A DNA stretch of 64,000 nucleotides from an uncultured virus (IMG/VR IMGVR_UViG_2881085443_000001). Lineage: Duplodnaviria; Heunggongvirae; Uroviricota; Caudoviricetes; Crassvirales. Within the stretch, counting starts at the first letter, position 1. The number at the start of each line of letters is the position of its first letter. The notes under the pieces are model-generated. The model was not told the DNA's origin. It made no database searches and saw only the letters and a list, made by a program, of their open reading frames with translations. Of this stretch, positions 5,889 through 59,824 are shown piece after piece. The position numbers and the translations under genes were made by a program. The stretch is taken from the IMG/VR virus record IMGVR_UViG_2881085443_000001; one strand, 5' to 3'.

Positions 5889-6161
5889 ATGAGTCTATTA
5901 CCTCAACCAAAAAGCAACCGGCAAGAAGTGTTACTAACGCTAATAAAAAACGGCAAAGTATCAATTGAAGATTATCCATACTTATCCGGTTTCAGGACCA
6001 GAGTTTCTGAATTGACATTAGAACATGGATTAATACTGAAATCAAAACCGGTGAATGCTAAAAATAAGTTTGGCCGCACAATTACCTATGTTGAACATCA
6101 TTTAGAAGAAAATGAAATTGAAAACGCAATTGCAATCTATAACTCGATAAATAATTTATGA
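5889..6161 (+). CDS. small winged-HTH protein
   Basis: YLSGFRTRVSELTLEHGLIL pattern; ATG 5889 preferred over 5838, which lies inside the leader hairpin. Confidence 0.55.
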   Translation: MSLLPQPKSNRQEVLLTLIKNGKVSIEDYPYLSGFRTRVSELTLEHGLILKSKPVNAKNKFGRTITYVEHHLEENEIENAIAIYNSINNL

Positions 6162-12441: not shown

Positions 12442-12453
12442 CCAAAAAAAACA

Positions 12454-13383: not shown

Positions 13384-13414
13384 CCATAAATAAATACCTA
13401 AAACCCAAATTAAA

Positions 13415-13660
13415 ATGAGAGCATTAGAAGAGTTTGAAATTACAAAAATTAAACAAGTTATTGCGGATAAAACAGATGTTGATTTAGAGAAAGTCACTGA
13501 AGATTCTAATCTACAAGACCACCTTGGAATAGATAGTCTGGATATAGTGGAGATCATTATAGAGTTGGAAGAAATGTTTAAATGTACCATTCCGGATGAA
13601 GACTATGAACATACAGTAAACGTTAAGGACCTGCTCAAAATCGTAGAGCAAAATTTATAA
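13415..13660 (+). CDS. acpP: acyl carrier protein
   Basis: LGIDSLDIVEIIIELEEMF with the phosphopantetheine-attachment Ser. Confidence 0.9.
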   Translation: MRALEEFEITKIKQVIADKTDVDLEKVTEDSNLQDHLGIDSLDIVEIIIELEEMFKCTIPDEDYEHTVNVKDLLKIVEQNL

Positions 13661-13738
13661 AATCTAAAGTGGTCAAATTCGACCACTTTAAAAATACATT
13701 TTAAACCTCGCTTGTATAGGTAAAAGCTAATCTATATT

Positions 13739-13990
13739 ATGAATAAAGCACAATTAGTAAAAGAAGTTGCTTCGGCAACAGGGCAAACGCTTGCGGAAGC
13801 AAACGCATCAGTAGAAGCAGTTTTAACAGCTATCAAAACTGGATTATCAAGTGAAGGTCAAACAAGAGTTTTAGGTTTTGGAGTTTTCAAAAACGTGATC
13901 CGAAAAGCCAGATCCGGACGTAATCCTTCAACGGGAGAGATTCTGTACCTTCCTGAAAAAACAGTGGTAAAATTTAAACCATTTTTCTAA
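13739..13990 (+). CDS. HU/IHF family DNA-binding protein
   Basis: MNKAQLV...GFGVF...RKARSGRNPSTGE. Confidence 0.92.
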   Translation: MNKAQLVKEVASATGQTLAEANASVEAVLTAIKTGLSSEGQTRVLGFGVFKNVIRKARSGRNPSTGEILYLPEKTVVKFKPFF

Positions 13991-13994
13991 AACC

Positions 13995-14026
13995 AAAAAA
14001 CCTTACTATAACAGTAAGGTTTTTTT
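13995..14026 (+). terminator. intrinsic terminator
   Basis: AAAAAACCTTACT-ATAAC-AGTAAGGTTTTTT hairpin with T-run. Confidence 0.75.
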
Positions 14027-14057
14027 CAACACTAACTATTAATTAAGATATAAAATT

Positions 14058-14288
14058 ATGATTAGATTTTTAAAAATTACAGGAATTTATCTTGATGATA
14101 AAAAAAGCTTTGCATTTTACAATACAGTCACTAATAAATTATTAGAATTTGATGGAAATCAAGTTTTTGATGATTTAGAAGATTTTGATTTATATTACAC
14201 TTCAAAATGCGGTTATGATTATGACAGATTAACTGGATTAATTCCTTTGGGTTATTTTTCTGAAGATTCCAACGAAGCTGACGCATAA
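14058..14288 (+). CDS. hypothetical acidic protein flanked by 19-bp direct repeats
   Basis: 76-aa ORF; ATAACAGTAAGGTTTTTTT at 14008 and 14285. Confidence 0.6.
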   Translation: MIRFLKITGIYLDDKKSFAFYNTVTNKLLEFDGNQVFDDLEDFDLYYTSKCGYDYDRLTGLIPLGYFSEDSNEADA

Positions 14289-14334
14289 CAGTAAGGTTTT
14301 TTTTATTATATTTGGTTAACGAAAATAGTAAACC

Positions 14335-14550
14335 ATGAAAAATTTATCTTTAATAGCAATAGCTATAGTATTGTTGTCTTGCTCTAAGGACGATGATTGT
14401 CAGATAGTAACAGGATTAGAAGCTGTACAAACCAGTACCGGTTGGAAATATACAATCGAACTCGATAGAAGCGATCCTATTATTACCAATAAGGCTACCA
14501 CTGATTTTTACCGGGGACGAAGCGGAATGTGCTTTGAAGGATACAAATAA
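14335..14550 (+). CDS. small lipoprotein
   Basis: Signal peptide with lipobox LLSC followed by SKDDD; TATATTTG promoter element just upstream. Confidence 0.75.
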   Translation: MKNLSLIAIAIVLLSCSKDDDCQIVTGLEAVQTSTGWKYTIELDRSDPIITNKATTDFYRGRSGMCFEGYK

Positions 14551-14552
14551 TT

Positions 14553-14579
14553 AAAACGCCCTATTCCGGGCGTTTTTTT
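14553..14579. terminator. bidirectional terminator between convergent operons
   Basis: AAAACGCCC-TATTCC-GGGCGTTTT. Confidence 0.7.
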
Positions 14580-17500
14580 GTTGCTAATTCTTTTTTTAGT
14601 TTGTTGTAGGCCTGCATCGTGGCAGGAGTCAATATCCCTTTAGCTTTTTTCATTTGTATCATTACAGCTCGGCTATCTTTGGATCCGTCAAAAATATCTC
14701 CGTAATAATGCATGATCATTAATGCCTTGGCCTCATTTCCTTGCTCGTATTTTATATCCAGAATTGTTCCGTCAACATCTTTCAATCGGATTTTGTCCTT
14801 GATTTTGTTATAAATACGTTTCTTTTCAATCGGTTCCAGCTCTCCCATTTTAGAATCTAAATCAGCTTTCGAAATTTCTTTGTTTACAAATTGTTTCGTC
14901 AGCGTATTAAATTCGGCTTTGGTGCGGTGCTTCTCTATGTTGATAGCGTCCAGTTTCTCCTGCATTTCTTTCTTACCTGCTAATTGTCGGTTAAAATCAG
15001 AAGTATAACTATGCGTTCTTTTCGTGAACGATTTTAAAGTTGTCTTCGCTAATTCACTCCCTATTTGTTTCATTCCTTTGTCAGAACCTGCAGCATCGGC
15101 ACCACCATAAAGCATGCCTACAAATGGATTGGTTCCCGGTGAAGTAATCAAACTTTCTACAAATCCTTTGGTCCTAACGGGAGATAAACCAAAATTCTCA
15201 CCAATTTTCTTGTAAAAATCCTCAGTACTCGATAACGTAATCCCTTCCACTGCTAATGGAACTTTTCCAATATCAAATGATAACGGTTCGTCCTTAAAGA
15301 AATCGTATCCGGTTGCATACGTCATAGTCGCCTTGATAGCAGGACTTCTGGTAAAAAAACCTGCAGGACTTGTCACGTCAACTGGCATAATATGATTAAA
15401 AGCAGATAAACCTTCTGCTGTTATTTTTCCGGCGCTTTTCTTTTCTTGTCCGGCCAGACTTCGGATCAGGTTATTAAAAATATTATCGGTCAATGACATA
15501 ACCGGAGCAAGCTCTTGTGCTTTAGCTATTTTTATCACCATATATTGTCCGTCTTCATTTTTAAAAGGAGTTGGAATATTCATGTATTTCTCTTTCTGAT
15601 AACTACTGATTCCTGCAACAGCATCCAGATAAATTTCATAGGTCGTTTTGTCTTCATCATCATCGCTTTTCATAGCGGATATTAAAGCTAATGAAATTCC
15701 TATTGGCACCGTACTAGCTAATGTAGCGACTTGCAAAACTTTGGCTGTAGTGCCTACAGGATCTTTTTCAAAGGCCGTTGCAGCTACTCTACCTCCCTGG
15801 AAGGCCACATTGATATAAGGAATAAAAGCTTCCATATCTTTAGTGATGGATCCACCTTGGTTGAAATCCAGAATTCCTCTGGCACTGGCAACTGCTTGAC
15901 TGTAAATATCGTCAATTTGTTGCTTGTCGGTAACTTCTGAAATATCGCTGAATCTTAGATCTTTCAACTGGTTTTGAATCGTACGCTGAAAAATACCCAA
16001 ACGAAACATCATTTCGCTGTACTGAGATATTTTATGTAAAGTAACTTTATTGAAAATTGATTTGGCAATATCCCTGGTATTGGCTGAAACTGCTTTTTCT
16101 AAGACTTGTCCCATTACCGACTCTTTTTTCAACTTTCCTTGTGAACTCAAAAAATCCATGGCACCACCGTATTCAATGTATTTTTTTAATACATCACTTT
16201 GCGGCTTGCGTATTTCTTTGATTGCTTTTGCCACATCTTTTGCTACCTGAAACATCGCTTTGGGTACAATATTGCTGTACTGATCGGAGAAAGTAAGCGT
16301 AAACAAAAAGTCACGCGGCGTATTAACAATCGGAAATGCAGGATTATTACCCGTTGCAATGGCTTTGACTAATGCAGCTCCCGAAGCATACGATATGAAT
16401 TCCTTAGCATTACTGCTTAAAAATCCGGCTACATTATTATTCCAGGATTCATGTAATTCGTCTTCTAAAAAGAATTCCTGTCGCTGGCCGTTCACGTAAT
16501 AATACGCTTTCGAAAAGTTCGCAGGAGTTTTGTCGTAAAGGTATTTGTTGGTTGTACTATTAAAAGGATTGTCAATGACTTTTGAAGACAATTCCTTGAA
16601 ATATTTATAAAAACGAACGTCGTCACCTTTCAAATTTTTAGGATTTAATTTGTCAAAACGTGCTTTTGCTTTTTGAAATTCGCCCGTCATGAATCGCTTA
16701 TTGATATTATTCATCGCCATTGCTTTGGACCTGGACGATAACGAATTAGTAAGCAGCCATTCGGAATTCAAAACCAAACTGTTAGCGTCTCCTTCTGACA
16801 TAGATTTAATCTGATCTGAACTTAAACCACCGCTATCTACATTATTGGTTCGCTTGGCGGTTTCAATATCGCCATTAAAATCAGTGACAAACTGCAAAAA
16901 TACACGCGGCTGGTAATCTACATCGCTCATAGAATCAAATGACTCTTGTGATAGCAATCCGTTATCCAGCATATCTTTTAGTATTCCTTTATACGTGTCA
17001 AAATAAGCTTCGGAACGTTCTACCAGCTCATTAAATTTTTCGGTACCCAATTCCTTTTCTAATTGAGATAAGAATTTCTCCGATTTGTTTTTATCTATAA
17101 AATTAGGGTGCGAAACCGGATCCAGTCCTCTAGCTTCACGATTCGTATCTATTGCAATAAAACGTTTGGCCTGAATGATTTCATCAAGAATAGCGCGTTC
17201 TGCTGTAGTCAGTCCTTTGTAAATTTTATTGTAAGCTTCTTCAAATTGTATTTTAGCTCTACCAGAAGCGCCTTGTGCATTGACAATTAAATTCTGGATC
17301 ACTTTCATTCCGGATTTATTCAACAAGCTTTTAGCTAAATATTGGCGGTCCGTGAACTTCTTTACAAAATTACGGTAGGCGTCTCTTATATATTCTGAAG
17401 GAAGTTTTTTGTTTTTTAATTCGGCACGTGCTTTTGCAAATGTGGCCTTCACTTCATTGTAAGCATCCTCTTCTGAAATATTCTCGGAAGCAGCACGATT

Positions 17501-20500
17501 TAATAAATTCTCAGCTTGGCGTTCGTTGGCCGGATCAATAGCGCTTATTTTATTCAAAAAATTAGTCTGAAAATCATTTTCAATATCAGCTTGCTCTGTT
17601 TGTGTTAGGTTTTTGAACCAGTCACTTTGTTTTACAGCGTCAAGTCCTGCCTGAATAATTTCTGCAGCTAATTTACCAGCTTTTACCGCTATTTTCATTG
17701 CCTGAATAGCAGCTTTAGCCACAACAATAGGAATTCCCACTGATAGGTTGTCTCTACCAAAATCATTAAGCTCCTTTTCAGCATTTTCTAACCATTCCAG
17801 GATTTGATCCGGAGTCGATTTGTCGTCTATTTCAAAATTGATTTCTTTAGTAGAAACCACTTCTCCATTTTCAATTTTTGCTTTTAAATCGGTTAATTGT
17901 TTGATCTCTGCCTGAGCATCTTTAATCGCCTGGCGCTCTTTGGCCGTTGCTTTGTTTCTGGCGTCAACATCTACTCTTTCATCAAAAAGCTTGTTTTCAT
18001 TCTGGTTTGGTCGCTCTCCAAAAATATCTTCATTGTCTTTTAGCAATTCTTTATCTAAGAGTTTTGCTTTGCGGTCCAATGCTTCCTTAGCAATTCTAAG
18101 GTTTTCATTCGCTTGCGCCAGTTTAGCATTTACTTCTTTTAATTCCGGGGATTCAGCATTTATTTCTTTGCCTTTTTCTTGTCCTCCGCGTACTTCTTCG
18201 CTATCGCTAATCGCATCGCCTTCATTCGGATCAGGTAATCCTTGTCGGTCTGATTCGTGTTGGTCGTAGAGTTCTCTTTGCTGTTCTCCTGTAAGGGATT
18301 CAATGGATTTTTCGTATTCATTTTGATAGTATTTTAGTTTTTCACTTTCGTTCAAATTGTCTTCGGCTTGTACCGCGTCAAATAAGGTTTGTTCTGCTTC
18401 AGTTATAAATTCTTTATTCGCTTCAATAGCGTCTGCTTCGTTCATGCCGTAGAACGGATCAATTGATCTTTTATACATTTCATGCACACTTTCCTTTACA
18501 TCATTGACACTGCCAAAACCAGCGATAATATCAATCAAATGATCTCTTACTGCCTTTTCATCCAATTCAACAAAATCAGCTCCGGAAACAATCCCTTCCG
18601 CTACATTTTCAATGCTAGGTAATTTCTTTGTGGAAAACGGATCGGTGGCCCACTTGCTGTCCATGTTTCCTACTTCGGTCTGAATACTTTCTTTAGAGAA
18701 CTTTACGCCTCTGGCAATTTCTAATAACGCATATTCATACTCGGTAGTAGGTATAAAGTTATCAATACTATCTTGAATTTGCTTTTTATTTTCAATATTT
18801 ATTTCATTGTCCGATAAACCGCCTTCTGCAATAGCTAATATTTTGTAATAATTGGCGTTTTTAACAGGTTTGTAGACAGGTTTATTGTCAACCAGTTTTT
18901 TTAGCTTCCGTTGCGTGTATTTTGGAACCTCGGTACCGTCTTTTTTGAAAATCTTTACTTCGCCTTTGCTGTCAGTTTCAACGGTAAATTCAGTTTCCTT
19001 ACCCCAACTTTTATATTTTACGGTTTTCTTTACAACGTCGCTTTTCGCTGCAGGTGGTCCTAACAGCTTTTCTACCGCTGTAACTAATTCTGGATTAGAT
19101 CCATCTAATTTAGCTTTGTGGTATCCTTCTGCAATAGTTTTAGAATAAGGTTGTGAAAATATTTTATCATCAGCTACAGCGTATTTAAAGTCGGTTACAC
19201 CTGACGCTAATTGAGCTTTTACTCTATTGTTACCGTCTAATATTTTACCATTTTTATCTAGTAAAATTACATTATTAGGCAACTTTCCTCCGTTTTTTAA
19301 AAACTCATATATTTTATACGCACTTCCTACTTCTTTATCTATCTTTTCAGGACTATTTACATACCGATCAAAAGGTAATGCGAAATCACTCTGTTTTATA
19401 TCTTTGTAATTTATTGTGCCTTCTAATGGTAATGCATTAATTGCAAAAGCAAAAGCTTGCTCTTTAGGGATTACGGTTTCAAGCGCCTTAGCAGTGCTTT
19501 CCACATCTTTTAACGGATCGATTCCTTTATTTTCTCCGGCGTCAGCGGCACCCGGTACACTTTCTTTTGCAGGACCTTCCGGCTTGGCATTTCCGTTTTC
19601 TCCCACATTGTCAGCTCCAATTCGAAGGTTTCCATCAGCAGGAGTATTTGTTGGCGGTGCTGCTTCATTTGTTCCTTGTTTATTTATTATTTCACTGGAC
19701 AACAATTCTTTAAAAGAATTTACTGTCGGAGCTATTTTTTCAAGCGCATTGGTCTTCTGATCAGATGTTAAACTATTAAAAGTCATACCTGGAGGTAAAA
19801 AAGCTTTTGCTAATTCCTTTGCGATTTTAGTCAATTCAACTTCCGTTAATACGTCTTGGTTGTTTCTAACGGAGTCATAGCCTGAATCCTTTGTTGAAAA
19901 TCTCTTAGTAAGGCTTTCTTTTATTGCAGTTTCTAATTGATACTGCTTTTCTTTATTTTTAAAATACTTAGGAATATTTAGTTTGTTATTTATTATATCA
20001 TTTAAAATGTCCTTAAAAACAGTGTTGTTATGGTTTTCTAATGTAGATCGGTCTTTTGCATTTTGTCGTATTTCCGAATTTGAATTTATTTTTTCAAAAA
20101 TCTCCGACTTAGGAATGCCTTGCGCTAAATACTCTTTCTCTAATCTTTCAGAAATCTCGTCATGTTTTTTGTCGTAGGAGTCATTATGAGTATTTATCTC
20201 TTCTGGAGTGTAAAAAGTTTTCTTAACCTCTTTTGTGTTTGCAACAACCGGAGCAACTTCATTTGTTGACGTCGCTGCTTCATTAATAATCTGATTTATT
20301 TTGGCATTATATTCTGCCTCTATTTTTCTATTATTAATATAAGACGGCGTTTTAACAAGTTCACTTTCTTCAAGTCCTTGTGGCTCTAATAGCAATTTAC
20401 TATTTCTTTCTTCCTCTAAGTTTTTTAACGTTTCTTTTTGGTTATCTGATAGTTCAGAAACACTAGGAACCGGACTAGCTTCCGCAGCCGGTTCTTTCGT

Positions 20501-32825: not shown

Positions 32826-33523
32826 TAATTAGCGGTTTTTTTGTTGTCTTCTTGCATTTCGTCGTTGTTCCCGGCCATTTGTAAATCTTGCTCTTTAAGA
32901 TTGATTCCAAACTTGACACATAACCTGGACACAATATCGTCTTCTTCAGAAGCATGCATGTCAATGTCTTGAAAATCCAACGCATCAGGATTAAAAACTT
33001 CAACATCACTAATCACCACAAAGGTCCATTTAGGCACCAATGGCTTGCGAAGGTAATAAGCGGTTACTTTGTCAGTGATTGCAGCAGGAAGTACCTCGAT
33101 TACATTATTGATTTTTAAACCTATAGGATAATCAATACTGGGTTGCGTATGTTTAAATCGTCGTAGTTGGTTGAATTCTGACATGTTTTTACAAATACTG
33201 ATTTCGCTTAATCCGTTATATAGAATCGATTCCATATACCCCACGTTTGCCGGAATAGTGAATTTACCTTCAGTATAAGTCAGGAGGCCGGACGTTAAGA
33301 AGTGTTCCATCTTAGCTCGGATAATATCAGGAAGGTTTTCTACACCGTTCCCTACTAATCCTCTGTTTTGTCTGTTCAGATATTTGGTAAGATCAAAAGG
33401 ATACTCTTCAAATTTCTCCGTCATTACATTATAAAGCGCTTTGTCAAAATCAGATGGTTTCATGTTTCCACGAACATCACTATTGGCAAGCATCTTAACA
33501 GTTTGATATACTCTATCGATCAT
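32825..33523 (-). CDS. tail ring/adaptor protein
   Basis: 232 aa with YLRKPLVPKW; own promoter element CAAATGTA at 33571. Confidence 0.5.
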   Translation of the reverse strand: MIDRVYQTVKMLANSDVRGNMKPSDFDKALYNVMTEKFEEYPFDLTKYLNRQNRGLVGNGVENLPDIIRAKMEHFLTSGLLTYTEGKFTIPANVGYMESILYNGLSEISICKNMSEFNQLRRFKHTQPSIDYPIGLKINNVIEVLPAAITDKVTAYYLRKPLVPKWTFVVISDVEVFNPDALDFQDIDMHASEEDDIVSRLCVKFGINLKEQDLQMAGNNDEMQEDNKKTAN

Positions 33524-33751
33524 AATAAAACAGATTTTACACTAATAATAACAAAAACTTATACTTAATACAAATGTAATAAATTTTAAGTATCATTAAC
33601 AGACAGTTTTAATACAAATTATTTATATTTTTGGTAAAAATAAATATGTTATGAATTACGACGACGAGCGAGCTAATATGATGCTACAACTTTTTATAAG
33701 GTTTTGCCTGGTAATTGGATTGATAATACTAATCGGAATTCCTTTTTTGAC

Positions 33752-33958
33752 ATGGATCATACCAAGACTGTAAAAGAAGCTATTGACATAAAACACAAAA
33801 GTTCTAATGGAAGTTGCGGCACTTTAATTCCGGATCTGGCAATCAGTACAGGAATACCGTACGAAGAATTGTATCCGGTACTTCGGGTGCTATATGATCA
33901 GAAGTATTTTGTTATGAAACAGGGCATTAATGGTAAAATGATATTTAAGAGGAAATGA
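33752..33958 (+). CDS. small winged-HTH-like protein, first gene of the accessory island
   Basis: ATG 33752; helix-turn-helix-wing pattern ending KQGINGKMIF; start uncertain. Confidence 0.45.
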   Translation: MDHTKTVKEAIDIKHKSSNGSCGTLIPDLAISTGIPYEELYPVLRVLYDQKYFVMKQGINGKMIFKRK

Positions 33959-34194
33959 AAAAAATTATAGCTGTTATAGGTCACGTAGATCACGGAAGAA
34001 CTTGTTTGCAAAGTGCAATTGATAGAGTTCTGGAAAAAGAAAGAGGAATTACTATTGTAAATCCAGAAGAGGCAAACGAAATAAAAGAAAATTATTATTT
34101 CAAAAATGAAGCATTGAAATTAAAATGCTTTAATGAACCCGAACCAATTCAGGAGCAAATATTCGACAAACCAAAATCTAAATTTCATAAATAA
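33955..34194 (+). CDS. 79-aa protein carrying EF-Tu-like G1 and G2 motifs
   Basis: IAVIGHVDHGRT and EKERGITI. Confidence 0.7.
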   Translation: MKKIIAVIGHVDHGRTCLQSAIDRVLEKERGITIVNPEEANEIKENYYFKNEALKLKCFNEPEPIQEQIFDKPKSKFHK

Positions 34195-34210
34195 CGGAAT
34201 CGTAGTATTC

Positions 34211-34303
34211 CTGATAACGGCCGATGATTGTGGCTGTTTGCCACTACAGAAGTTGAATAGGAATAAAATGATTGTGCAAATAGCCACAATCATTTGTTAT
34301 CAG
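34211..34303. repeat. attC-like site 1
   Basis: CTGATAAC...ATGATTGTGGCTGTTTGC / GCAAATAGCCACAATCAT...GTTATCAG. Confidence 0.8.
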
Positions 34304-34338
34304 CATACCACTTAACACTAATTTTAAAAATATAAATT

Positions 34339-34740
34339 ATGGCTTACGATATTTACGGAAATGATTTAAGAAGAGGATATTGCGAAGTTCATCCTCACGT
34401 GCATCAAGAATATCCTTGTGATATTTGTTGCAGAGAAATAGAACAAAGTAATCGTCAAAACGAATATAATAAGCAAATGCAAAAGGATTATTATAAAAGT
34501 ATTGACCCGTCTTTTGATATGGAAACGACACGAATTGTAATTGATTTACTTGTAGTCAGGATTCCAAAAACTGATTTAAATTCAGGTTTATTAGATATTG
34601 ATTTTAACGGACAATATTTGATACAGATAAAAAAAGAAGATGATTCTGATTTGTGGAAAGTAACTAATGCGATGAATGGTTACGGGCATAATTGCTTTGA
34701 GGAATTTAAAAAATCAGAAGTTTCGTTTTTGAGTAACTAA
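34339..34740 (+). CDS. cassette 1 hypothetical protein (Cys/His-rich N-terminus)
   Basis: 133-aa ORF with CEVHPHVHQEYPCDIC. Confidence 0.7.
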   Translation: MAYDIYGNDLRRGYCEVHPHVHQEYPCDICCREIEQSNRQNEYNKQMQKDYYKSIDPSFDMETTRIVIDLLVVRIPKTDLNSGLLDIDFNGQYLIQIKKEDDSDLWKVTNAMNGYGHNCFEEFKKSEVSFLSN

Positions 34741-34766
34741 TTATCGACAACGTGTAGCTTCGGTTG

Positions 34767-34899
34767 CTGATAACGTTCATTATTGTACTTGTAGCGAACT
34801 GACACAAGACAATTTATCGGATTAAAGACTAATAAAAACAAGAATTACAAATCATCAAATTAAGCCGAGTAAAGCTATAAGTACAATATATTGTTATAT
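34767..34899. repeat. attC-like site 2
   Basis: CTGATAAC...TATTGTACTTGTAGC / GCTATAAGTACAATA...GTTATAT. Confidence 0.8.
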
Positions 34900-34943
34900 T
34901 CTCGGCTTTTTTTACTAAATATTAATCAATAAATAAAAATAAA

Positions 34944-35171
34944 ATGACAAAAGAACAAGTAGAAATATACGAATATTGCAAAAAGCACTTAGAAGAATTA
35001 GAGATAGAAAGTAAAAACTCTACTTTTAAAAGGCAAAAATATGGTTGCGGAACAGGAAGCCCAACAATAACATTTAATTTAGAAAGAATTAATCAAGATA
35101 TGTACAGTGAGATTTTTGAAGCTGTAAATAAAGCAAAAAATAGTATACAAAAAATTATCGATGAACTATAA
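34944..35171 (+). CDS. cassette 2 hypothetical protein
   Basis: 75-aa ORF between sites 2 and 3. Confidence 0.7.
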   Translation: MTKEQVEIYEYCKKHLEELEIESKNSTFKRQKYGCGTGSPTITFNLERINQDMYSEIFEAVNKAKNSIQKIIDEL

Positions 35172-35220
35172 CAAAATGACAGCCAGAGTTACTTTCGCCA
35201 GAAAGTTGCTCGAAGCTGGA

Positions 35221-35356
35221 ATATAACGCTTGCCGCTTGTTTTTCGGCTTGAAAAGACATAAAACCATATTTACCTAATCACAAATATTAAAAAGTACAA
35301 GACAATGAAAACAGAAATCACAGATAAAAAAGCTGAAAATCAAGCGGCTGTTAGTG
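35221..35356. repeat. attC-like site 3
   Basis: ATATAAC...GCCGCTTGTTTTTCGGCTT / AAGCTGAAAATCAAGCGGC-T-GTTAGTG. Confidence 0.8.
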
Positions 35357-35613
35357 GCAGTAGATTGATTGGAAAAACAAACGTGATGATTTTAGGGATG
35401 ATTACCGAGCTACAAAAAGGAGGTAAAGTTGGGGTTGTAGGTTGTAAAGACCCGAAAGATATTACTGAACGACTAAAAGCAAAAGGTATCGAAGTAAAAA
35501 GCGAACCAATTATTAGAAAAGGACAAGCACAACCAATATATGACGATGAAGGAATTATTGGTTTTGAAAATAGTGATGATGTACAGACAGGGTTTCTGTT
35601 CTATTGCCACTAA
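35305..35613 (+). CDS. cassette 3 hypothetical protein (starts inside site 3)
   Basis: 102-aa ORF; stop codon is the TAA of the next TAAC core. Confidence 0.65.
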   Translation: MKTEITDKKAENQAAVSGSRLIGKTNVMILGMITELQKGGKVGVVGCKDPKDITERLKAKGIEVKSEPIIRKGQAQPIYDDEGIIGFENSDDVQTGFLFYCH

Positions 35614-35742
35614 CGTCCATCGCTACACTTTCGGCTTGGCGTAAACAAGCGAGGTGTTTCGGATGAAAAACAATAATTACAAATAAAAAACAATATTAAC
35701 CCAATGCCAAATGCAAAAGCTGAAATGTAGCGATTGTTAGTG
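35608..35742. repeat. attC-like site 4
   Basis: CACTAAC...ATCGCTACACTTTCGGCTT / AAGCTGAAATGTAGCGAT-T-GTTAGTG. Confidence 0.8.
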
Positions 35743-35767
35743 GCATACCACGTAAAACTTATAAATT

Positions 35768-35950
35768 ATGGAATATCCAGAACCTATATGCCAAGATTGT
35801 GGAAAACATTGTAATATGTCAGAAGAAATTGATACAGGCGGAGGAAATGAAAAAGGATTTAGCTACATCGAATTGTGGTGTTACTGTGAAAAGTGTGACA
35901 GAGAAACAAATCACCCAATACCTTCTGACAACAATAATTACCCAGAATAG
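35768..35950 (+). CDS. cassette 4 zinc-ribbon protein
   Basis: CQDC...CEKC, 60 aa. Confidence 0.65.
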   Translation: MEYPEPICQDCGKHCNMSEEIDTGGGNEKGFSYIELWCYCEKCDRETNHPIPSDNNNYPE

Positions 35951-35958
35951 GCGGTTGC

Positions 35959-36091
35959 CACTAACGTCCCGCTACTATTAGATGTTGACGAAAAGGACAA
36001 AACCAGTTGTCAAGGATTACTTGACAACTGAAAACACAAAACAATAACAACCAAAGCCTGATACGGCAATAGCTTATAGTAGCTGTTATAT
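35959..36091. repeat. attC-like site 5 with an internal hairpin
   Basis: CACTAAC...GCTACTAT / ATAGTAGC-T-GTTATAT; inner CAGTTGTCAAG/CTTGACAACTG. Confidence 0.75.
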
Positions 36092-36130
36092 TCTCGGCTT
36101 TTTTACATTAACAAATTAAATATAAACAAA

Positions 36131-36349
36131 ATGAAAACACTAAAAGAACAAATTGAAGAAGTAGATTTAATCCAAACAGGTTACGAAGATTTTTATATGG
36201 ATTCTGATAAAATAGTTAAAGTAACAGAAAACTATGTAAATGAAAAAATAGATAAACTAATACAAAAAATAGAAGGTGAAACTTTAGCTCATTATGCTTA
36301 TGAAGCAATTATAGGTATGCTTGAAGATTTAAAATTTCAGCGAGAGTAG
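36131..36349 (+). CDS. cassette 5 acidic hypothetical protein
   Basis: 72-aa ORF. Confidence 0.7.
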   Translation: MKTLKEQIEEVDLIQTGYEDFYMDSDKIVKVTENYVNEKIDKLIQKIEGETLAHYAYEAIIGMLEDLKFQRE

Positions 36350-36377
36350 CTTTGGTTACAAAGTTGCTCAAGCTGGA

Positions 36378-36509
36378 ATATAACGGCGGATGCTACACGA
36401 TGGCTGGGAAAAGCACACACCCAGACTTCGGATAATGACAGATTAAAAAGGTGCAAAACAGACTTTAAATTTAACCCGAAACCCAGCTATTGTGTAGCAT
36501 ATGTTACTG
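36378..36509. repeat. attC-like site 6
   Basis: ATATAAC...ATGCTACACGATGGCTGGG / CCCAGCTATTGTGTAGCAT-AT-GTTACTG. Confidence 0.8.
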
Positions 36510-36533
36510 GCTGTGTTTTTAAAATCAAACGTG

Positions 36534-36938
36534 ATGAACGGACAACAAATTGAAAAATTAGTAAAAGAGCTTATTAAAAAAGAAGTTGATTATAGAAGCT
36601 ATGACGGTAAAATGTCTAAAACATCTTTAATCGAAAGAGGAAGCGAAACCATTTTAGAGCAAATAATTAGACAACATTTATTGGATAATCGTGATGAAAA
36701 ATTAGGTTCATTAGAAGCGAAAGTTTTTGTTTATGAAGAAATGATTGCCAAAAGCACATTTGCTCCAATGCTTGTTGAAAAAGAAGTAGAAACCATAAAA
36801 GAACCTGAACCTTACCGAAGAGAAATGATTTTTACTCAAACGCAAATTGAACACTTACAACACAAAATATTTGAAATTACTGGCGAGGGCGAAGTAATGA
36901 AATTGTTCAATGAAATGTTGGGCGTATCTGTTGGGTAA
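36534..36938 (+). CDS. cassette 6 hypothetical protein
   Basis: ORF open from 36501; internal ATG at 36534 is the likely start. Confidence 0.65.
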   Translation: MNGQQIEKLVKELIKKEVDYRSYDGKMSKTSLIERGSETILEQIIRQHLLDNRDEKLGSLEAKVFVYEEMIAKSTFAPMLVEKEVETIKEPEPYRREMIFTQTQIEHLQHKIFEITGEGEVMKLFNEMLGVSVG

Positions 36939-36944
36939 CATAGC

Positions 36945-37073
36945 CAGTAACGTTCATTATTGTACTTGTATCGAACAAGTAAGCAAAACATCGAGATTCA
37001 AGACAAATCTCGCAGAATTTACAAATAATTAAATCAAGCCTGATATAGCTATAAGTACAATATATTGTTACAG
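36945..37073. repeat. attC-like site 7 (same arms as site 2)
   Basis: CAGTAAC-GTTCATTATTGTACTTGTA...GCTATAAGTACAATATATT-GTTACAG. Confidence 0.8.
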
Positions 37074-37104
37074 GACGGCACTAATTTTTAAAGCAAATAA
37101 AATT

Positions 37105-37398
37105 ATGAAATTAACAGGGAAATGCAAAGAAGATTTTGATAAATGGTTTTATGATAATTATCCATATAAGGAATTTTTATTTTATAGTGATAATTTTAAA
37201 TGCACGTATATTATTGAGTTCTTTGATTCGTATGGGGTTTATTTATGCATAACCCCTGTATTCCCAATAAATAAATACGGATTCTCTTATTCTGTAGATT
37301 TAAAATATTATTATGATATTTTTAACACACGAACCGAAGCAGCAAAGGCAGCTATAATAAAAGCAAATGAAATTTATAATGACAAACATAAATTATGA
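37105..37398 (+). CDS. cassette 7 gene A, hypothetical phage protein
   Basis: 97 aa, MKLTGKCKEDFDKW...TRTEAAKAAIIKANEIYN. Confidence 0.7.
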   Translation: MKLTGKCKEDFDKWFYDNYPYKEFLFYSDNFKCTYIIEFFDSYGVYLCITPVFPINKYGFSYSVDLKYYYDIFNTRTEAAKAAIIKANEIYNDKHKL

Positions 37399-37835
37399 GT
37401 AGAGAAATTAAGTTTAGGGGAATGACAAAAGCTAACAATGTAATGGTTTTTGGAGATTTAATTGTTTGTCCTAATGGAGAGCATAGAATGTTATGGTTTG
37501 AACTAAAAGGAGAATTACCATTAGACTTAGATTACAATTCATTTAATGAAGTTGTACAATCTAGTACTATTAGTCAATTCACAGGGCTACAAGATAAAAA
37601 CGGTTTAGATATTTATGAGGGTGATATTTTACATAAAAAAATAGAACTTGAAGGAGGCATAAAAGGAAATTGGATTGTTGTTTATGGTGAAGGTGGTTTT
37701 GATATTAAAAACATTGATACATCTGCGGAGGTTAAAACAATGTATCTAAAAAAATACTGGAAACATTCTTATGAGGTCATTGGAAATATTTACGAAAATC
37801 CAGAACTATTAGCCGTTCCTACCGCTGTCCTGTAA
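37395..37835 (+). CDS. cassette 7 gene B, YopX family protein
   Basis: REIKFRG, QFTGLQDKNGLDIYEGDI and EVIGNIYENPELL. Confidence 0.9.
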   Translation: MSREIKFRGMTKANNVMVFGDLIVCPNGEHRMLWFELKGELPLDLDYNSFNEVVQSSTISQFTGLQDKNGLDIYEGDILHKKIELEGGIKGNWIVVYGEGGFDIKNIDTSAEVKTMYLKKYWKHSYEVIGNIYENPELLAVPTAVL

Positions 37836-37963
37836 CGGATTGTGGCTTTGTCTTGTTGCCAAAAAACACAAGACCAACTTTAAATTAAAGACAAATTATG
37901 GAATCACAAAACAATAATTCAGTTCAAGACCAATCTGGCAATAAGTCAAAACCGTTGTTAGCA
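37830..37963. repeat. attC-like site 8
   Basis: CTGTAAC...GGCTTTGTCTTGTTGCCA / TGGCAATAAGTCAAAACC...GTTAGCA. Confidence 0.75.
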
Positions 37964-38422
37964 AATCGGCTTTTTAGAGGTTATTCTAAAAAGCATAATA
38001 ATTGGATTTATGGCGACTTAATTCACACTCCCGAAAAACAAACAAGAATTATAAATTATACAGATATTAGCAGCGATGGAGTTGATGATTTTGTAACTAT
38101 AAATGAATTAGTTGAAATAAATTCTATTGGTCAATTTACAAGCTCAATTGATAAAAATGCAGAAACAATTTGTGAAGGCGATATATTATCAAAAGTAGAA
38201 ATTGAAAAATTAGGTGAAAATATACAGTATTTTTATGTTGTAAAGTGGTCAAGTTCTAACGATGGCTACAGATGTATTCAATATAAATTAGATGAAGATG
38301 AAAACGGTGTTTATTGGAGAAAAATAGACAGTTCAAGCGCAATATCAATGGTAATTTGTTATAATCACATTATAGGAACTGTTTTTGAAAATCAGCATCT
38401 TTTTAACCGTAATTTTGAGTAA
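37898..38422 (+). CDS. cassette 8 YopX family protein (start codon inside site 8)
   Basis: RLFRG...WIYGDL...GQFTSSIDKNAETICEGDI...IIGTVFEN. Confidence 0.8.
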   Translation: MESQNNNSVQDQSGNKSKPLLANRLFRGYSKKHNNWIYGDLIHTPEKQTRIINYTDISSDGVDDFVTINELVEINSIGQFTSSIDKNAETICEGDILSKVEIEKLGENIQYFYVVKWSSSNDGYRCIQYKLDEDENGVYWRKIDSSSAISMVICYNHIIGTVFENQHLFNRNFE

Positions 38423-38428
38423 GCTGTT

Positions 38429-38558
38429 TGCTAACGGAAAAGCTAACCGATGTTCAGGAAAAGTAAGGACTGAACTTCGGATTATTACAAATCTTACAGA
38501 CACAAAACAATAATTAAATTTAACCTAAAGCCTGAATAGCGGTTAGCGTATGTTATCA
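38429..38558. repeat. attC-like site 9
   Basis: TGCTAAC...GCTAACCGATGTTCAGG / CCTGAATAGCGGTTAGC...GTTATCA. Confidence 0.8.
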
Positions 38559-38582
38559 CTTCGGCTTTTTATTCCACTAAAT

Positions 38583-38831
38583 ATGAACTCAAAAGAATTG
38601 AAAAAAGAGCAATTTATCGCAAAAGCTATGGAAAACAAAAAGAAATTTGAAATACATAAAAGACTTATTGAGGAAAATTTATGTATTGGTGGCGAAATGT
38701 ATATTAAAGATTTAAAAGTATTTGCTAACTATCAGATAGTAGATAATCAATTGCTTTTAAATTTAATGGAATATGCTGAAAGTTTTGCTAAAGAATATGC
38801 AGAATTACAAGCTTCCAACCAAGCTGAGTGA
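38583..38831 (+). CDS. cassette 9 hypothetical protein
   Basis: ORF open from 38550; ATG at 38583 is the likely start. Confidence 0.65.
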   Translation: MNSKELKKEQFIAKAMENKKKFEIHKRLIEENLCIGGEMYIKDLKVFANYQIVDNQLLLNLMEYAESFAKEYAELQASNQAE

Positions 38832-38848
38832 TAACTTGTTTATAGGCG
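38829..38848 (-). other. attI-like site
   Basis: Minus strand reads CGCCTATAAACAAG|TTATCA; core present but no hairpin partner. Confidence 0.5.
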
Positions 38849-38951
38849 TGATTCATAATATTGCACCACCCAGCAATCATTGAGGTTAGCAGACAAATAA
38901 AAATATAAATTCATAAATTTATACTACATATCAACTTCAAAAAATTGCACC

Positions 38952-39176
38952 ATGAAATTATCAGAAAAGATAAAAGAGCATTTAAGTGAAAGAATTGAAA
39001 ATGGAGAATTGAACAATGACGACATGGTACAAATAATAGAACACCTCGGCTCCTATCTGAATTTAAAAACAATTCCGGATTACGCCAAAGAAAACAAACG
39101 CTCCTACAACGGAGTAAAAAACCACAGAACTATACGGATTATTTTTAATGTTAAATTCGTGATAGACAATGACTAA
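38952..39176 (+). CDS. small putative DNA-binding protein
   Basis: 74 aa; LKTIPDYAKENKRSYNGVK is HTH-like. Confidence 0.55.
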   Translation: MKLSEKIKEHLSERIENGELNNDDMVQIIEHLGSYLNLKTIPDYAKENKRSYNGVKNHRTIRIIFNVKFVIDND

Positions 39177-39185
39177 ACCAAAACC

Positions 39186-39713
39186 ATGAGTAAAACTATT
39201 GAACTAGCTAAAAAATTAAAAGCGCTTGCTGACAAAGGAATTGGCGGCGAGAAAATCAATGCTGAAAAAATGCTTACTGATTTACTGAAAAAACATAATT
39301 TGACTATTGAAGAAATAGAAGGAGAAAAAGAACAAGACTATTTTTTTATTGTTTCAAAAGAGGATTTTAAATTATGGTACCAGATCGTGAAAAAAGTAAA
39401 CAATGATATAAAAGTCTTTGGTCCGTTCCCTATTAAGATGCAAAAAGAAATGTATCTAAAAGGAAACTATATGGTTTCTTGCTCGGTTTCAAACTACATT
39501 GAAATTGAAGCTAAAAATGATTTTTATCAACGTTTGTTCAAGGATGAATTGGACTTGTTTAGCTCGGCATTTATTCACGCCAATGATCTAGAAGTGGACC
39601 TGTCCGGTAAAGAAGCTCCGGAACTTTCCAGGGAAGAGTACAATCAATTAATCAGGGTGCGCGACATGGCTGACAAAATTAAGAAAGGTACGTTTTTAAA
39701 ACAGTTACAATAA
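39186..39713 (+). CDS. DUF2786-like protein
   Basis: KKLKALADKGIGGEKINAEKMLTDLLKKHNL N-terminus. Confidence 0.65.
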   Translation: MSKTIELAKKLKALADKGIGGEKINAEKMLTDLLKKHNLTIEEIEGEKEQDYFFIVSKEDFKLWYQIVKKVNNDIKVFGPFPIKMQKEMYLKGNYMVSCSVSNYIEIEAKNDFYQRLFKDELDLFSSAFIHANDLEVDLSGKEAPELSREEYNQLIRVRDMADKIKKGTFLKQLQ

Positions 39714-39896
39714 ATGCAGCAATTCACGATACAATACTGGTTTTATTACCAAGGCGCAAACGAAAAAGACTTCGACGAAACGACCATACCTGCAGCGACC
39801 TACGAAGCAGCAGTAGCTATATTAAAATCAATACGCAAAAATATTTTTAATCTAACTGATAAAACCAATTATAAATTATGTCAAATTTCACAATAG
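39714..39896 (+). CDS. hypothetical protein
   Basis: 60-aa ORF coupled to the upstream stop codon. Confidence 0.5.
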   Translation: MQQFTIQYWFYYQGANEKDFDETTIPAATYEAAVAILKSIRKNIFNLTDKTNYKLCQISQ

Positions 39897-40249
39897 ATTT
39901 CTTTGAATTATTATTTCTAGCAGAAGTTTGTGTACCACCACGGCCCATTGCTAGGGCGATGTTTTGGGAAAGCATGAGTGATGTTCATTATCACAAAATG
40001 TCAGACGATGAACGCTTGAAAATGTTCGAGTTTCTAAAACCAAAATTAGATTTAGAAAATGAAGATTGCAGGTATTTCTTCGCCAGATACAATCCATTAA
40101 ATCAATACATGGTAAGCTGTTTTCATAACGGCAAAGCAGAAGAGATTCATTGCTTCCGTTTCAACGAACAATTTCATACTTCAAAAAACAGACACATAAA
40201 TCCGGACTATATTAAAAGTTCTGTGAAAGTCACGGTTACTGTACAATAG
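39878..40249 (+). CDS. hypothetical protein
   Basis: 123-aa ORF ending at a terminator. Confidence 0.65.
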   Translation: MSNFTIDFFELLFLAEVCVPPRPIARAMFWESMSDVHYHKMSDDERLKMFEFLKPKLDLENEDCRYFFARYNPLNQYMVSCFHNGKAEEIHCFRFNEQFHTSKNRHINPDYIKSSVKVTVTVQ

Positions 40250-44075: not shown

Positions 44076-44819
44076 ATGATAATTTTCAAGAACGAACATA
44101 ATAGTATTGTTTTCAATAAGCCTTGGCAGGAAACAACAAAACATATTCCTGACGGATATTTTGATTACGTAGTTGATGATGTTCCTTATGGAATTAACGT
44201 TGGCAAAATGGCGTTTTTAAATGAAACTAAGAATACAACAAAACAGAAAAACGGGAGTCGATTAAGTGCTAATAAAAATAAAAAAGTTTATACTTTAAAA
44301 GATTGGGATAATTCAGCTCCTGGTCAAGAATATTTTGATGAAATGAGAAGGATCTCTAAACATCAAATAATCTTTGGAGTTGAATATGTAAGTTGGAATG
44401 GTTTAGGAAGTGGCAGGATAAAATGGAATAAAGGAGTTCCAGAAGGAATGAGTTTTAAAGATAATGAAATGGCTTATTGTTCTAGCATTAATCATACTCA
44501 TGAAATAGATTTGTTATGGGCAGGAATGCAGCAAGCGGAGAATTTAAAAAATCCAATGCGCCAGCAAGGAAATAAAAAATTAAATGAAAAAAGAATACAC
44601 CCTTGTCATAAACCTATTCTTTTATATAAAAAAATAGCTATTGATTTTGAATTAGAAGGAAAGAAAGTATATTGTGGTCACAATGGTTCAGGAAGTGATA
44701 GGATTGCTCTTTACAACTACGCTAGTGAATTTGTTGCAAATGAAATAGATAAAGAATATTTCGATTTACAAGAATCACGTTTTAAAATTCATATTAATCA
44801 ACAATCATTATTCTTATAA
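44076..44819 (+). CDS. DNA N6/N4 methyltransferase (beta class), stand-alone
   Basis: DVPYG catalytic-type motif, IHPCHKP and GHNGSGS...NEIDKEYF; own promoter (TACTTTTG 44064) and terminator (44827-44857). Confidence 0.8.
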   Translation: MIIFKNEHNSIVFNKPWQETTKHIPDGYFDYVVDDVPYGINVGKMAFLNETKNTTKQKNGSRLSANKNKKVYTLKDWDNSAPGQEYFDEMRRISKHQIIFGVEYVSWNGLGSGRIKWNKGVPEGMSFKDNEMAYCSSINHTHEIDLLWAGMQQAENLKNPMRQQGNKKLNEKRIHPCHKPILLYKKIAIDFELEGKKVYCGHNGSGSDRIALYNYASEFVANEIDKEYFDLQESRFKIHINQQSLFL

Positions 44820-59104: not shown

Positions 59105-59824
59105 TTACATTATTACTTCCCTAGTTTGATTTTTATGATTATACACTTTCTCAATGTTATACATATACAATTTGACGCTAGCTTGACGATCCATCAACAT
59201 GGGTGCCTGGGAAATTTTACTTTTTAATTTTTCAAAACTGCAAAGTCCTTTCTTTTGCAGTTCCTGGACCGCGCCAATAAGGTTTCTATCTTTAGAAAAA
59301 CGATACTGTCCAAATAATTCATCTGATAATGTTAGTAAAGCGTCCGTCTCTTCAAAATACTTACATTCGAATCCACCACTTTGAAACGTTTCAGTTGATT
59401 TTACCTTTGGATTATTATACATTAATAAATCAATTGATAATTTAATTGCGATTTTATGCTTATTCATTATCTCAATGATTTTCTCGTAATCCGTAATGCC
59501 TAATTTTATATAGCAATTTAAGAAGTCATTCGGTTTCCATTTTTCGCCACGGCTATTCAATTGAGCGATTTGTTTTAGCGTTAACGTATTGCAAACAACA
59601 AAATATACTGGGTTTCCTGTTTGTTTACTTATTTCATATCGGTGCTGGCCGTCTATGATACAATACAATCCGTCCTTTTCTGAAACAATTATTGGACAAA
59701 AAGGAAGCATATTAAATCCTTGGGTAACATCGTTTATGATTTTTTCAATCTTAGATTTACTCAACAATCTATTCCCTGTTATATTTTCAAATAATTCGTA
59801 ATTTGTTGTTTGCTGGATTTCCAT
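59105..59824 (-). CDS. ParB N-terminal domain protein
   Basis: GNR...PIIV...IIDGQHR. Confidence 0.8.
   Translation of the reverse strand: MEIQQTTNYELFENITGNRLLSKSKIEKIINDVTQGFNMLPFCPIIVSEKDGLYCIIDGQHRYEISKQTGNPVYFVVCNTLTLKQIAQLNSRGEKWKPNDFLNCYIKLGITDYEKIIEIMNKHKIAIKLSIDLLMYNNPKVKSTETFQSGGFECKYFEETDALLTLSDELFGQYRFSKDRNLIGAVQELQKKGLCSFEKLKSKISQAPMLMDRQASVKLYMYNIEKVYNHKNQTREVIM

Follow-up and report, generated by a model that had tools for sequence, protein, structure and literature searches.

The window analyzed here, meaning the whole stretch of DNA, comprises 64,000 nucleotides of an uncultured crAss-like virus (IMG/VR record IMGVR_UViG_2881085443_000001); all coordinates are those of the window and refer to its + strand. 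Positions 34215-38846 hold a series of folded sites and small genes. That this series is a real integron-like cassette array in a crAss-like prophage is well supported, and a probability of roughly 0.78 was assigned to the fuller statement that the nine cassettes of the segment are mobile and belong to a site-specific recombination system of integron-like type. The original prediction, made from the letters of the window, had proposed cassettes of the integron type, in which each site is fully paired only in the excised circle. That proposal is upheld by the permuted pairing of the cassette ends, by the linkage of such arrays to a recombinase gene, and by a core-exact insertion or deletion (indel) between near-identical phages.

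Nine imperfect hairpins of 85-130 nt occupy positions 34215..38555 and are interleaved with ten small open reading frames (ORFs), all on the same strand. Every hairpin (9/9) has TAACG at its start and TGTTA at its end; the positions at which TAAC starts and GTTA ends are listed in Table 1. Nine hairpins had been predicted and all nine exist, but they had been placed 3-4 nt early, and their lengths had been given as 90-135 rather than 85-130. A tenth TAAC, at 38832, closes the ninth cassette, and the hairpin is absent behind it. Each element opens with a 4-nt core, followed by 4-6 unpaired nt, an imperfect stem of ~15-20 bp and a loop of 60-80 nt (shorter, 20-odd nt, in element 1); its 3' half is made up of the second stem arm, 1-4 unpaired nt and the core that closes it. 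When the elements were folded as DNA, the long-range stem was the minimum-energy structure in 8/9 cases (-10.9 to -18.8 kcal/mol). The arms of element 7 are complementary, yet its minimum-energy fold lacks the long-range stem.

The pairing that defines the cassettes runs across the genes. The 16 nt after each GTTA were scored for pairing with the 16 nt before each TAAC. Adjacent flanks paired across the gene in 9/9 window intervals (score 7.5-11.5, mean 9.1), compared with a mean of 1.9 for all non-adjacent combinations and likewise 1.9 for the two flanks of one element. The observed pairing sum was equalled by 0/100,000 random re-pairings (permutation p <= 1e-5), and high non-adjacent scores came only from the two cassettes with identical ends. 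Seven of these cross-gene complementarities had been claimed before; all are real, and the remaining two intervals behave likewise. The comparison was extended to consecutive sites 60-3500 nt apart in the window, in the arrays of its own genome, in the arrays of four relatives and in four phage or viral loci. Complementary flanks were found in 52/62 inter-site intervals (5 bacterial genomes, 4 phage/viral records) versus 4% of random partner pairs; the failing intervals were mostly long or bounded by weak matches. Ends that pair across the gene are, as in integrons, those of cassettes with a boundary inside the core.

The paired ends covary. At positions 1-5 of the outer stem, Watson-Crick pairs were present in 49-50 of 51 distinct paired cassettes, with the letters themselves freely variable. 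Position 7 was never Watson-Crick in these cassettes (G.T in 41, G.T after a 1-nt bulge in 7, bulge type in 3), and the circle-form hairpin is therefore imperfect at one fixed place, 11 nt from where the core starts. The orientation of the G.T relative to the site is maintained in the chromosomal array, where most of the cassette genes are on the other strand, which argues for a structure at the level of DNA rather than mRNA. In 15 modelled pairs of 78 matched sites, 92.4% of the cells were paired (69.5% in shuffles; 31-41% with slid partners) and 280 double-sided changes were counted versus 91+/-10 in shuffles, these pair counts being based on an alignment fitted to the model, which favours pairing, and on sequences that are kin. 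In all, pairing of the outer stem reaches 13-16 bp and, as the original prediction had noted, exceeds the 7-bp R box of classical sites. C opposite A at the fifth inner-stem position (21/36 sites; columns 15/130 of alignment A2) constitutes a second conserved imperfection; unlike the outer G.T, it would be a wobble pair on the complementary strand.

For the site family at large, 36 copies were aligned, and a covariance model (R1) was built from the alignment. AAC and GTT are invariant in 36/36 aligned sites. The geometry is that of attC in the IntegronFinder sense (about 57-141 bp): inverse AAC...GTT cores, an unpaired spacer, a covarying imperfect inner repeat, a variable loop and a length of 85-130 nt. 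From the R-box consensus RYYYAAC/GTTRRRY, only (T/C)AAC and GTT(A/G) are conserved, and the next four letters are mostly not RRRY in the window. Model R1, the kind of custom covariance model that had been suggested as a check, refound 8/9 window sites at E<=0.001, with the short element 1 being missed. In the bacterial genome that contains the window, it located 45 copies at E<=0.01, including the same 8/9 sites, scattered singles, and one-orientation arrays on contigs C24 (9), C6 (10), C25 (11) and C11 (2). Of 24 further genomes in the genus, 23 had copies, as many as 73 in one genome, and of 16 genomes from other families of the order none did; these counts describe a sample of kin that are not independent.

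Array sites are also present in isolated Flavobacterium and Polaribacter phages. A distant blastn comparison of the array with 50,697 phage records returned the elements themselves, conserved YopX segments and little else. The element matches lay in intergenic gaps of unrelated Flavobacterium phages (FPSV-D15/D17/D35, 11b, snusmum and filifjonk), and sites in unrelated phages were 75-83% identical. Model R1 counted 6 copies in FPSV-D15, 4 in 11b and 10 in snusmum6-1.

Related arrays end at a recombinase gene. The array on contig C24 of the host chromosome (L012, G000:C24:243213-263212, at about 12100-19710 of that locus; at least 10 sites) terminates at the junction TAAC/TTGTATATACT, where the slash marks the end of the core, and the 3' end of a gene for a 347-aa tyrosine recombinase lies ~100 nt behind it. 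The best families for this protein are XerA/integron integrase (218 bits, cut-off 220) and TIGR02249 (204 bits in two pieces, cut-off 265), and it can be aligned end-to-end with archaeal XerA. Orthologs (38-80% identity) occur in 13/24 same-genus genomes. Those in G011, G006 and G020 are directly beside arrays in the same relative arrangement, and seven further ones are at contig ends, as expected beside repeats. The junction next to the gene, YAAC/T..T.TATA, is conserved in the window's own genome (G000) and in G011, G006, G009 and G020. The terminal junction of the window, TAAC/TTGTTTATAGG, fits the same motif, as does that of L022, an IMG/VR crAss-like contig whose DNA is 84-88% identical to that of the structural genes flanking the array on one side in the window. 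In L022, a gene for a 277-aa recombinase (35% identical to the chromosomal one) follows directly after the terminal junction. An attI-like junction beside an integrase gene is thus found in relatives (5 bacterial arrays and L022), and the window has the junction motif only, at 38832-38846, with no gene.

These enzymes lack the segment specific to IntI. When the 347-aa recombinase was aligned with VchIntIA (2a3v), IntI residues 186-246 stood opposite just 16 of its residues. It was the best match in a genome-wide TIGR02249 search, with profile positions 180-238 unmatched, and no protein of its genome exceeded the TIGR02249 integron-integrase cut-off. The IntI-specific insertion is therefore absent; it is likewise absent from the L022 enzyme. 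A tyrosine recombinase with this insertion had been proposed as the partner to be sought in the host; the array-adjacent recombinase was found, but the insertion was not. The IntI-specific additional domain is described as about 35 residues near patch III (Cury 2016), as essential for integron function (Smyshlyaev 2021) and as underlying single-strand recombination (Escudero 2020). Because the recombinase family has no such insertion, the system is not a canonical integron.

Homologs of the array recombinase, annotated as "integrase", are present in 42 phage records, including Polaribacter phages Leef_1 and Freya_1-10 and Cellulophaga phage Ingeline. Array-associated recombinases from chromosomes and phages are closer to one another (26.9-41.6% identity, 100-250 bits) than to the genome's XerC/D-like proteins (26-28% identity, 88-115 bits); the weakest phage pair, Freya versus L022 (26.9%, 99.8 bits), falls within the XerC/D-like range.

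Gain or loss of cassettes exactly at the core was observed in Polaribacter phages Freya_1 and Freya_10. These phages share one isolation host, and the two flanks of the region in question match at 100% and 99.7%. Only Freya_10 contains a segment of ~4.9 kb with 12 annotated small genes. The segment splits the core between YAA and C and directly precedes the "integrase" homolog. Freya_1 reads ...CAAC/ACCCC... into the region upstream of the integrase. Freya_10 has the same left flank, ...CAAC/GG..., passes through a site and the array, and rejoins the same right flank at ...TAAC/ACCCC.... Because this indel is bounded by cores on both sides and stands beside the recombinase gene, it matches what integron-type insertion predicts. 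The available part of the Freya isolation paper interprets the integrase as a hint that the phages might be temperate and mentions neither integrons nor cassettes. Identical gene order among related phages, or breakpoints away from the cores, had been named beforehand as findings that would speak against cassettes; gene orders differ, and the Freya indel is exactly at the core. At the place of the array, L022 has four R1 sites with different cassettes, one of which has the ends of window cassette 4 around a 125-aa gene instead of the 60-aa one.

Metagenome contigs are supporting evidence and not decisive. Among public sequencing runs, none contained half of the array stretch, many shared roughly a tenth of its sequence words, and no RNA run was among the matching runs listed. 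Contigs were taken from four of these runs, each of a different study, and compared with the window. A wastewater contig matched 36497-36952 (cassette 6) with 0 mismatches; beyond the next TAACG it went on for 24 letters that are unlike the window. The same comparison gave three sediment contigs, which matched 36948-37835 (site 7 and the two-gene cassette 7) with 3, 1 and 4 mismatches and diverged to the left of 36948 and to the right of 37835, i.e. between TAA and C; cassettes 6 and 8 were uncovered in that run. Many joints kept 20-50 nt of both cassette ends and had the interior replaced. Bins 34364-34554 and 37993-38183 were uncovered in the four runs, which has no bearing on expression or absence.

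From these observations the following mechanism is proposed. The mobile unit would most likely be one folded site with the gene or genes behind it, with the C of one TAAC as its first letter and the TAA of the following one as its last three. Excision as a circle would join the ends of the unit, and the flank before TAAC would pair with the flank after GTTA to give a long imperfect hairpin. The outer part of this hairpin would consist of the 4-bp core, six covarying Watson-Crick pairs, the non-Watson-Crick position (nearly always G.T) and a few more pairs; the inner part would consist of an unpaired spacer and the ~15-20-bp inner stem with its 60-80-nt loop. The covarying stems suggest that the folded form is single-stranded DNA and that recombination proceeds on the single strand. 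A Xer-like tyrosine recombinase would cut the core and insert circles at YAAC/T..T.TATA beside its own gene, and the recombinase family described above is the presumed catalyst. The prophage in the window may have lost the recombinase gene, or may never have had it, and kept the array and the terminal junction. Present-day shuffling in this prophage would need a recombinase supplied in trans, e.g. by the host chromosomal array or a co-infecting phage.

The crossover is placed, on comparison of sequences and as the likelier but by no means certain choice, between TAA and C. Followed outward from the recombinase along the opposite strand, an array shows junction, G/TT, cassette and site in the order canonical for integrons, which would put the cut between A and C of TAAC on the + strand of the window. 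Like sites share the downstream flank and differ upstream (site 9 versus the copies in 11b and the host array; site 6 versus the FPSV-D15 site). Under this placement, all phage cassette genes would be opposite to the canonical strand, with the site preceding the gene, and the chromosomal genes would mostly be in the canonical orientation. The window's + strand would then be equivalent to the "bottom" strand of integrons. Also in favour of this placement, the longest ORF of two window units begins within the preceding site, and the subtype of site 8 has its own start codon and a conserved leader of ~21 aa (M-x-Q-x-x-N-N...DQ-x-GN-x-x-KP-L/M-L). This leader is fused to three unrelated proteins, in the window (37898-37960), in L022 (13717-13843) and in phage 11b (L002, 2106-2232). 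It runs through the closing core, so that the recombination core is located inside the coding sequence.

Several observations weigh against the cassette interpretation or parts of it, in addition to the dependence of the pair counts on a fitted alignment of kin. The TAACG strand folds more stably in only 26/36 sites, and the inner-stem C.A mismatch, in 21/36 sites, favours the opposite strand. Homology also breaks right after GTTA (loose ends at 36089, 37960 and 38555), and sites 2 and 7 are alike with both flanks different; on account of these two findings, the crossover point is not settled. The metagenome contigs are short and repeat-derived, and other organisms are a frequent source of joints with less than 95% likeness or with a short side. 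Neither circles nor excision joints nor a strand bias were seen; in particular, none of the joints in the contigs of the four runs could be read as a circle excised from this prophage. The window, like the rest of the 862-kb contig that includes it, encodes no PF00589 tyrosine recombinase, and activity of the system in this prophage is accordingly unproven. The candidate enzymes have no IntI-specific segment, so the chemistry may differ from that of integrons. Finally, 13 window proteins were compared by tblastn with the own genome (array region masked) and with four phage loci, and no homolog was found in the host arrays or the phage loci. Exchange between this prophage and this host is therefore unsupported.

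Four other explanations were weighed. The sites could be canonical attC sites, making the array a cluster of attC sites lacking an integron integrase (CALIN) that was built and served by a true IntI in the host population, with the Xer-like neighbours being unrelated (e.g. lysogeny integrases). The AAC...GTT cores, the unpaired spacer, the inner stem, the length and the permuted ends are all features of attC. Moreover, Qi et al. 2023 (PMC9892861) showed IntI1 to recombine one of the sites of Polaribacter phage P12002L; the primer for the other, the first site, opens with TAACGG and closes with TTGTTA. This account is nonetheless improbable: it does not accommodate a genome in which no protein reaches the integron-integrase cut-off, a Xer-like gene at the array end in that genome, three relatives and L022, a junction conserved in five bacterial genomes, the window and L022, or the Freya indel directly beside a Xer-like gene. 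A 13-16-bp outer stem with a fixed G.T is foreign to the 7-bp R box, and integrons are reported to be almost absent from Bacteroidetes, for which a single complete integron is given in the part of the IntegronFinder 2.0 report consulted.

Equally improbable is the view that the sites are regulatory intergenic repeats (terminator plus promoter or translation start) between genes shuffled by homologous recombination, as with the promoter early stem-loop (PeSL) elements of T4-type phages. Such repeats would be intergenic and, as here, conserved between unrelated phages, and one subtype does contain a start codon and a conserved leader. Behind four window sites stands a GGCTTTTT run, able to pair with the conserved AAGCC of the loop, and by eye the arrangement resembles a terminator. 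Homologous exchange, however, predicts neither the cross-gene pairing, the covariation of two stems, the mismatch at a fixed distance and the breakpoint in a 4-bp core, nor a dedicated recombinase at the array end, and the same sites occur in the chromosome behind oppositely oriented genes. Exchange by homology within the motif is also not what the Freya pair displays, in which the breakpoint is at the 4-bp core and the sequence on one side differs, nor does it agree with the pairing of cassette ends in the window.

We consider it very improbable that the sites are single-strand transposons or elements resembling miniature inverted-repeat transposable elements, of the IS200/IS605 style or that of repetitive extragenic palindromes and their associated tyrosine transposases (REP/RAYT), moved by an HUH enzyme. 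Imperfect hairpins, a boundary tetranucleotide, strand asymmetry and dispersed single copies in the chromosome would fit HUH-type elements, but here paired ends enclose a gene, the units stand in ordered, one-orientation arrays, and the enzyme associated with the sites is a Xer-type tyrosine recombinase (no search was made for HUH transposases). Least probable of all is a structure at the RNA level, with stems that bracket mRNAs, hairpins for processing or stability and a permutation functional in the transcript: G.T (G.U) positions do lie on the coding strand of the phage genes, the strand that folds better in most sites, but the chromosomal genes are mostly on the opposite strand with the G.T still oriented to the site, Rfam, which does not include the attC model, gave 0 matches at permissive thresholds in 33500-39500, and core-exact indels and linkage to a recombinase would be left unexplained. 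The integron-like cassette array is thus the preferred interpretation, and its features are collected in Table 1.

Table 1. Sites, cassette genes and terminal junction of the array, in window coordinates (R1, covariance model of the site family; aa, amino acids).
Feature	Position	Strand	Description
Site 1	34215..34299	+	Short, 85 nt, TAACG...TGTTA, 18-bp inner stem; missed by model R1 at E<=0.001
Cassette 1 ORF	34339..34740	+	133 aa, no family, no phage homolog
Site 2	34771..34896	+	126 nt; R1 69.6 bits
Cassette 2 ORF	34944..35171	+	75 aa; ends as those of cassette 5, protein unrelated
Site 3	35224..35353	+	130 nt; R1 58.6 bits; longest downstream ORF begins within, at 35305
Cassette 3 ORF	35305..35613	+	102 aa, no family
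Site 4	35611..35739	+	129 nt; R1 79.7 bits
Cassette 4 ORF	35768..35950	+	60 aa; same cassette ends in L022 enclose a different 125-aa gene
Site 5	35962..36088	+	127 nt; R1 79 bits
Cassette 5 ORF	36131..36349	+	72 aa
Site 6	36381..36506	+	126 nt; R1 92 bits; 83% identity to a site of Flavobacterium phage FPSV-D15, homology from TAAC exactly
Cassette 6 ORF	36501..36938	+	145 aa; 0-mismatch copy in a wastewater contig
Site 7	36948..37070	+	123 nt; R1 58.2 bits; stem a near-copy of that of site 2
Cassette 7, two ORFs	37105..37835	+	97 aa (37105-37398) and 146-aa YopX (37395-37835)
Site 8	37833..37960	+	128 nt; R1 93.8 bits; includes start codon and ~21-aa leader of downstream ORF
Cassette 8 ORF	37898..38422	+	174 aa, YopX-domain protein
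Site 9	38432..38555	+	124 nt; R1 85 bits; like sites with same downstream flank in phage 11b and host chromosomal array
Cassette 9 ORF	38550..38831	+	93 aa; stop codon within 3' pairing flank
Terminal junction	38832..38846	+	TAAC/TTGTTTATAGG, no hairpin behind; resembles recombinase-adjacent junction of five bacterial arrays (attI-like remnant)
74-aa ORF	38952..39176	+	At the place of the 277-aa Xer-like recombinase gene of L022

The window encodes a portal protein, a large terminase, virion and tail-fibre proteins, a crAss muzzle-protein domain and a replication module. It is embedded in the 862-kb contig of a 3.84-Mb bacterial genome (Flavobacterium-type). Ordinary chromosomal genes are found on its left side; to its right, at ~3.7-6.6 kb, there are a large serine recombinase and a 446-aa protein with an integrase SAM-like domain. 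With chromosomal genes on the left and recombinases on the right, the phage is an integrated prophage. The description of the array as lying inside a phage genome was thus correct as to the phage genes, but the phage is integrated. Integrated crAss-like prophages are uncommon. The serine recombinase (499 aa) and the SAM-like protein (L021, G000:C12:337358-355357, at 3667-6622) are candidates for the integration of the prophage. An integrase had been reported to be absent from the window; for PF00589 tyrosine recombinases this is borne out and extends to the whole 862-kb contig. Provided that the sites count as attC, nine of them with no PF00589 recombinase on the contig constitute a CALIN. The right end of the phage has an ArdA-like antirestriction ORF (63686-64000) and a ParB-like gene (59105-59824). 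A tRNA scan of the window found none.

Among the ten cassette ORFs, two encode YopX proteins, one has a match to an uncharacterised PHROG, and 7/10 have no Pfam or PHROG match. Anti-defence cargo had been suggested for these cassettes and is unsupported, since PADLOC returned 0 matches for the 10 ORFs and the family assignments are those just given. The 133-aa and 145-aa cassette proteins had no match in the 50,697 phage records. The cassettes of the host array on C24 include a RES-domain protein (385 aa), a DUF4145 protein matching the defence model PD-T7-4 with a PIN_8 neighbour, and a DUF4279 protein; their genes are mostly on the strand opposite to that of the phage cassettes, and the array stops at the contig end with a transposase fragment.

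Near-identical cassette ends of 20-50 nt surround unrelated genes at 34893-35227 and 36085-36384 in the window and, in comparison with L022, at 35736-35965. Cassettes 2 and 5, with their identical ends, were considered as simple duplicates; this was ruled out, as the two proteins (75 aa and 72 aa) have no similarity. The sole tblastn match of the window proteins was a weak one, of the 79-aa ORF at 33955-34194 to a chromosomal gene on C1 (38% over 63 aa). The ORF directly precedes site 1. Its product bears a weak likeness (Pfam E 0.0013) to the GTP-binding N-terminal part of GTPases of the EF-Tu type, and it may be a gene fragment captured at the distal edge of the array. A DNA methyltransferase gene (44076-44819) and a 123-aa gene (39878-40249), both present in the window and absent from L022, were examined as cassettes and rejected for want of TAAC/GTTA flanks, which points to a different indel mechanism at these places. 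At 34866-34912, 36056-36104 and 38528-38571, a conserved AAGCC in the 3' part of the loop can pair with GGCTT of the downstream flank ahead of a T run; this terminator-like fold is an alternative to, and a competitor of, the pairing across the gene.

Integrons are held to depend on an IntI-specific helix that enables a Xer-like enzyme to recombine folded single strands. The arrays described here may represent a second, IntI-independent lineage of integron type, an idea to which we give slightly better than even odds. Such a lineage would combine a Xer-like recombinase that has no I2 insertion with folded sites of ~125 nt, each with a long covarying outer stem and an invariant G.T. It would pool genes between chromosomes of Flavobacteriia (defence- or toxin-like cassettes in one orientation) and phages including crAss-like ones (accessory genes in the opposite orientation, with the site providing the 5' end of the gene). 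If this is true, many flavobacterial phage "integrases" that have been read as signs of lysogeny would be cassette recombinases, and an "integrase" in such a phage need not mean a temperate lifestyle. The same cassette logic with a plainer recombinase would be a natural comparison for the evolution of hairpin recombination, and it would explain the turnover of orphan accessory genes in flavobacterial phages, crAss-like ones included. The system is abundant in one flavobacterial genus and its phages, and cultured material for tests exists (the Freya series, Flavobacterium phages 11b and FPSV, and Flavobacterium strains).

No published description of this recombinase-and-site family was found in a search that subscription journals and some supplements largely escaped. 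Phage CALINs have already been published; what appears to be new is the distinctive long outer stem together with an associated recombinase that fails the IntI test. Of the known systems, the PeSL elements of T4-type phages reportedly separate small orphan genes by conserved intergenic motifs, with modular gain and loss between close relatives; their exchange is said to be driven by homology, with no dedicated recombinase, 4-bp core breakpoint or pairing of cassette ends. The likeness to the present arrays thus resides in small orphan phage genes with intergenic motifs, and the difference in the recombinase, the core breakpoint and the paired ends. The pdif modules of Acinetobacter plasmids likewise consist of genes between inverted recombination sites, for which Xer-type recombinases are held responsible. 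Their sites are short, conserved in sequence and double-stranded, whereas here the sequence of the paired ends varies from cassette to cassette and their pairing alone is constant.

A further comparison is offered by the phage CALINs of Qi et al. 2023 (PMC9892861), a survey made with the published attC model and HattCI; 17 were reported from 10,705 phage genomes, some with no more than two sites, and P12002L is among the carriers. They resemble the present arrays in being attC-type clusters without an integron integrase, in including a Polaribacter phage and in having methyltransferase cassettes. They differ in that the text and one supplement file name no Flavobacterium phage and draw no link to a Xer-like enzyme; here, 4-10 sites are present in 11b, FPSV-D15 and snusmum6-1, and nine in the window. 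Also comparable are the integrons themselves, specifically sedentary chromosomal ones with long, uniform attC sites and an inverted-integrase layout. Shared with these are mostly single-gene cassettes, AAC...GTT hairpins with a spacer and an inner stem, a crossover in the core, ends that pair only in the circle, an insertion junction beside a tyrosine recombinase related to Xer/IntI, and a host chromosomal array with toxin- or defence-like cargo (RES, PIN_8 and DUF4145 matching PD-T7-4). The present system differs from them in a recombinase that has no IntI insertion, in an outer stem of 13-16 bp with G.T at the seventh pair in place of the 7-bp R box, in phage cassette genes on the strand opposite to the canonical one, with a site that precedes the gene and can supply its start codon, and in its occurrence in one Bacteroidota genus and the phages of that genus.

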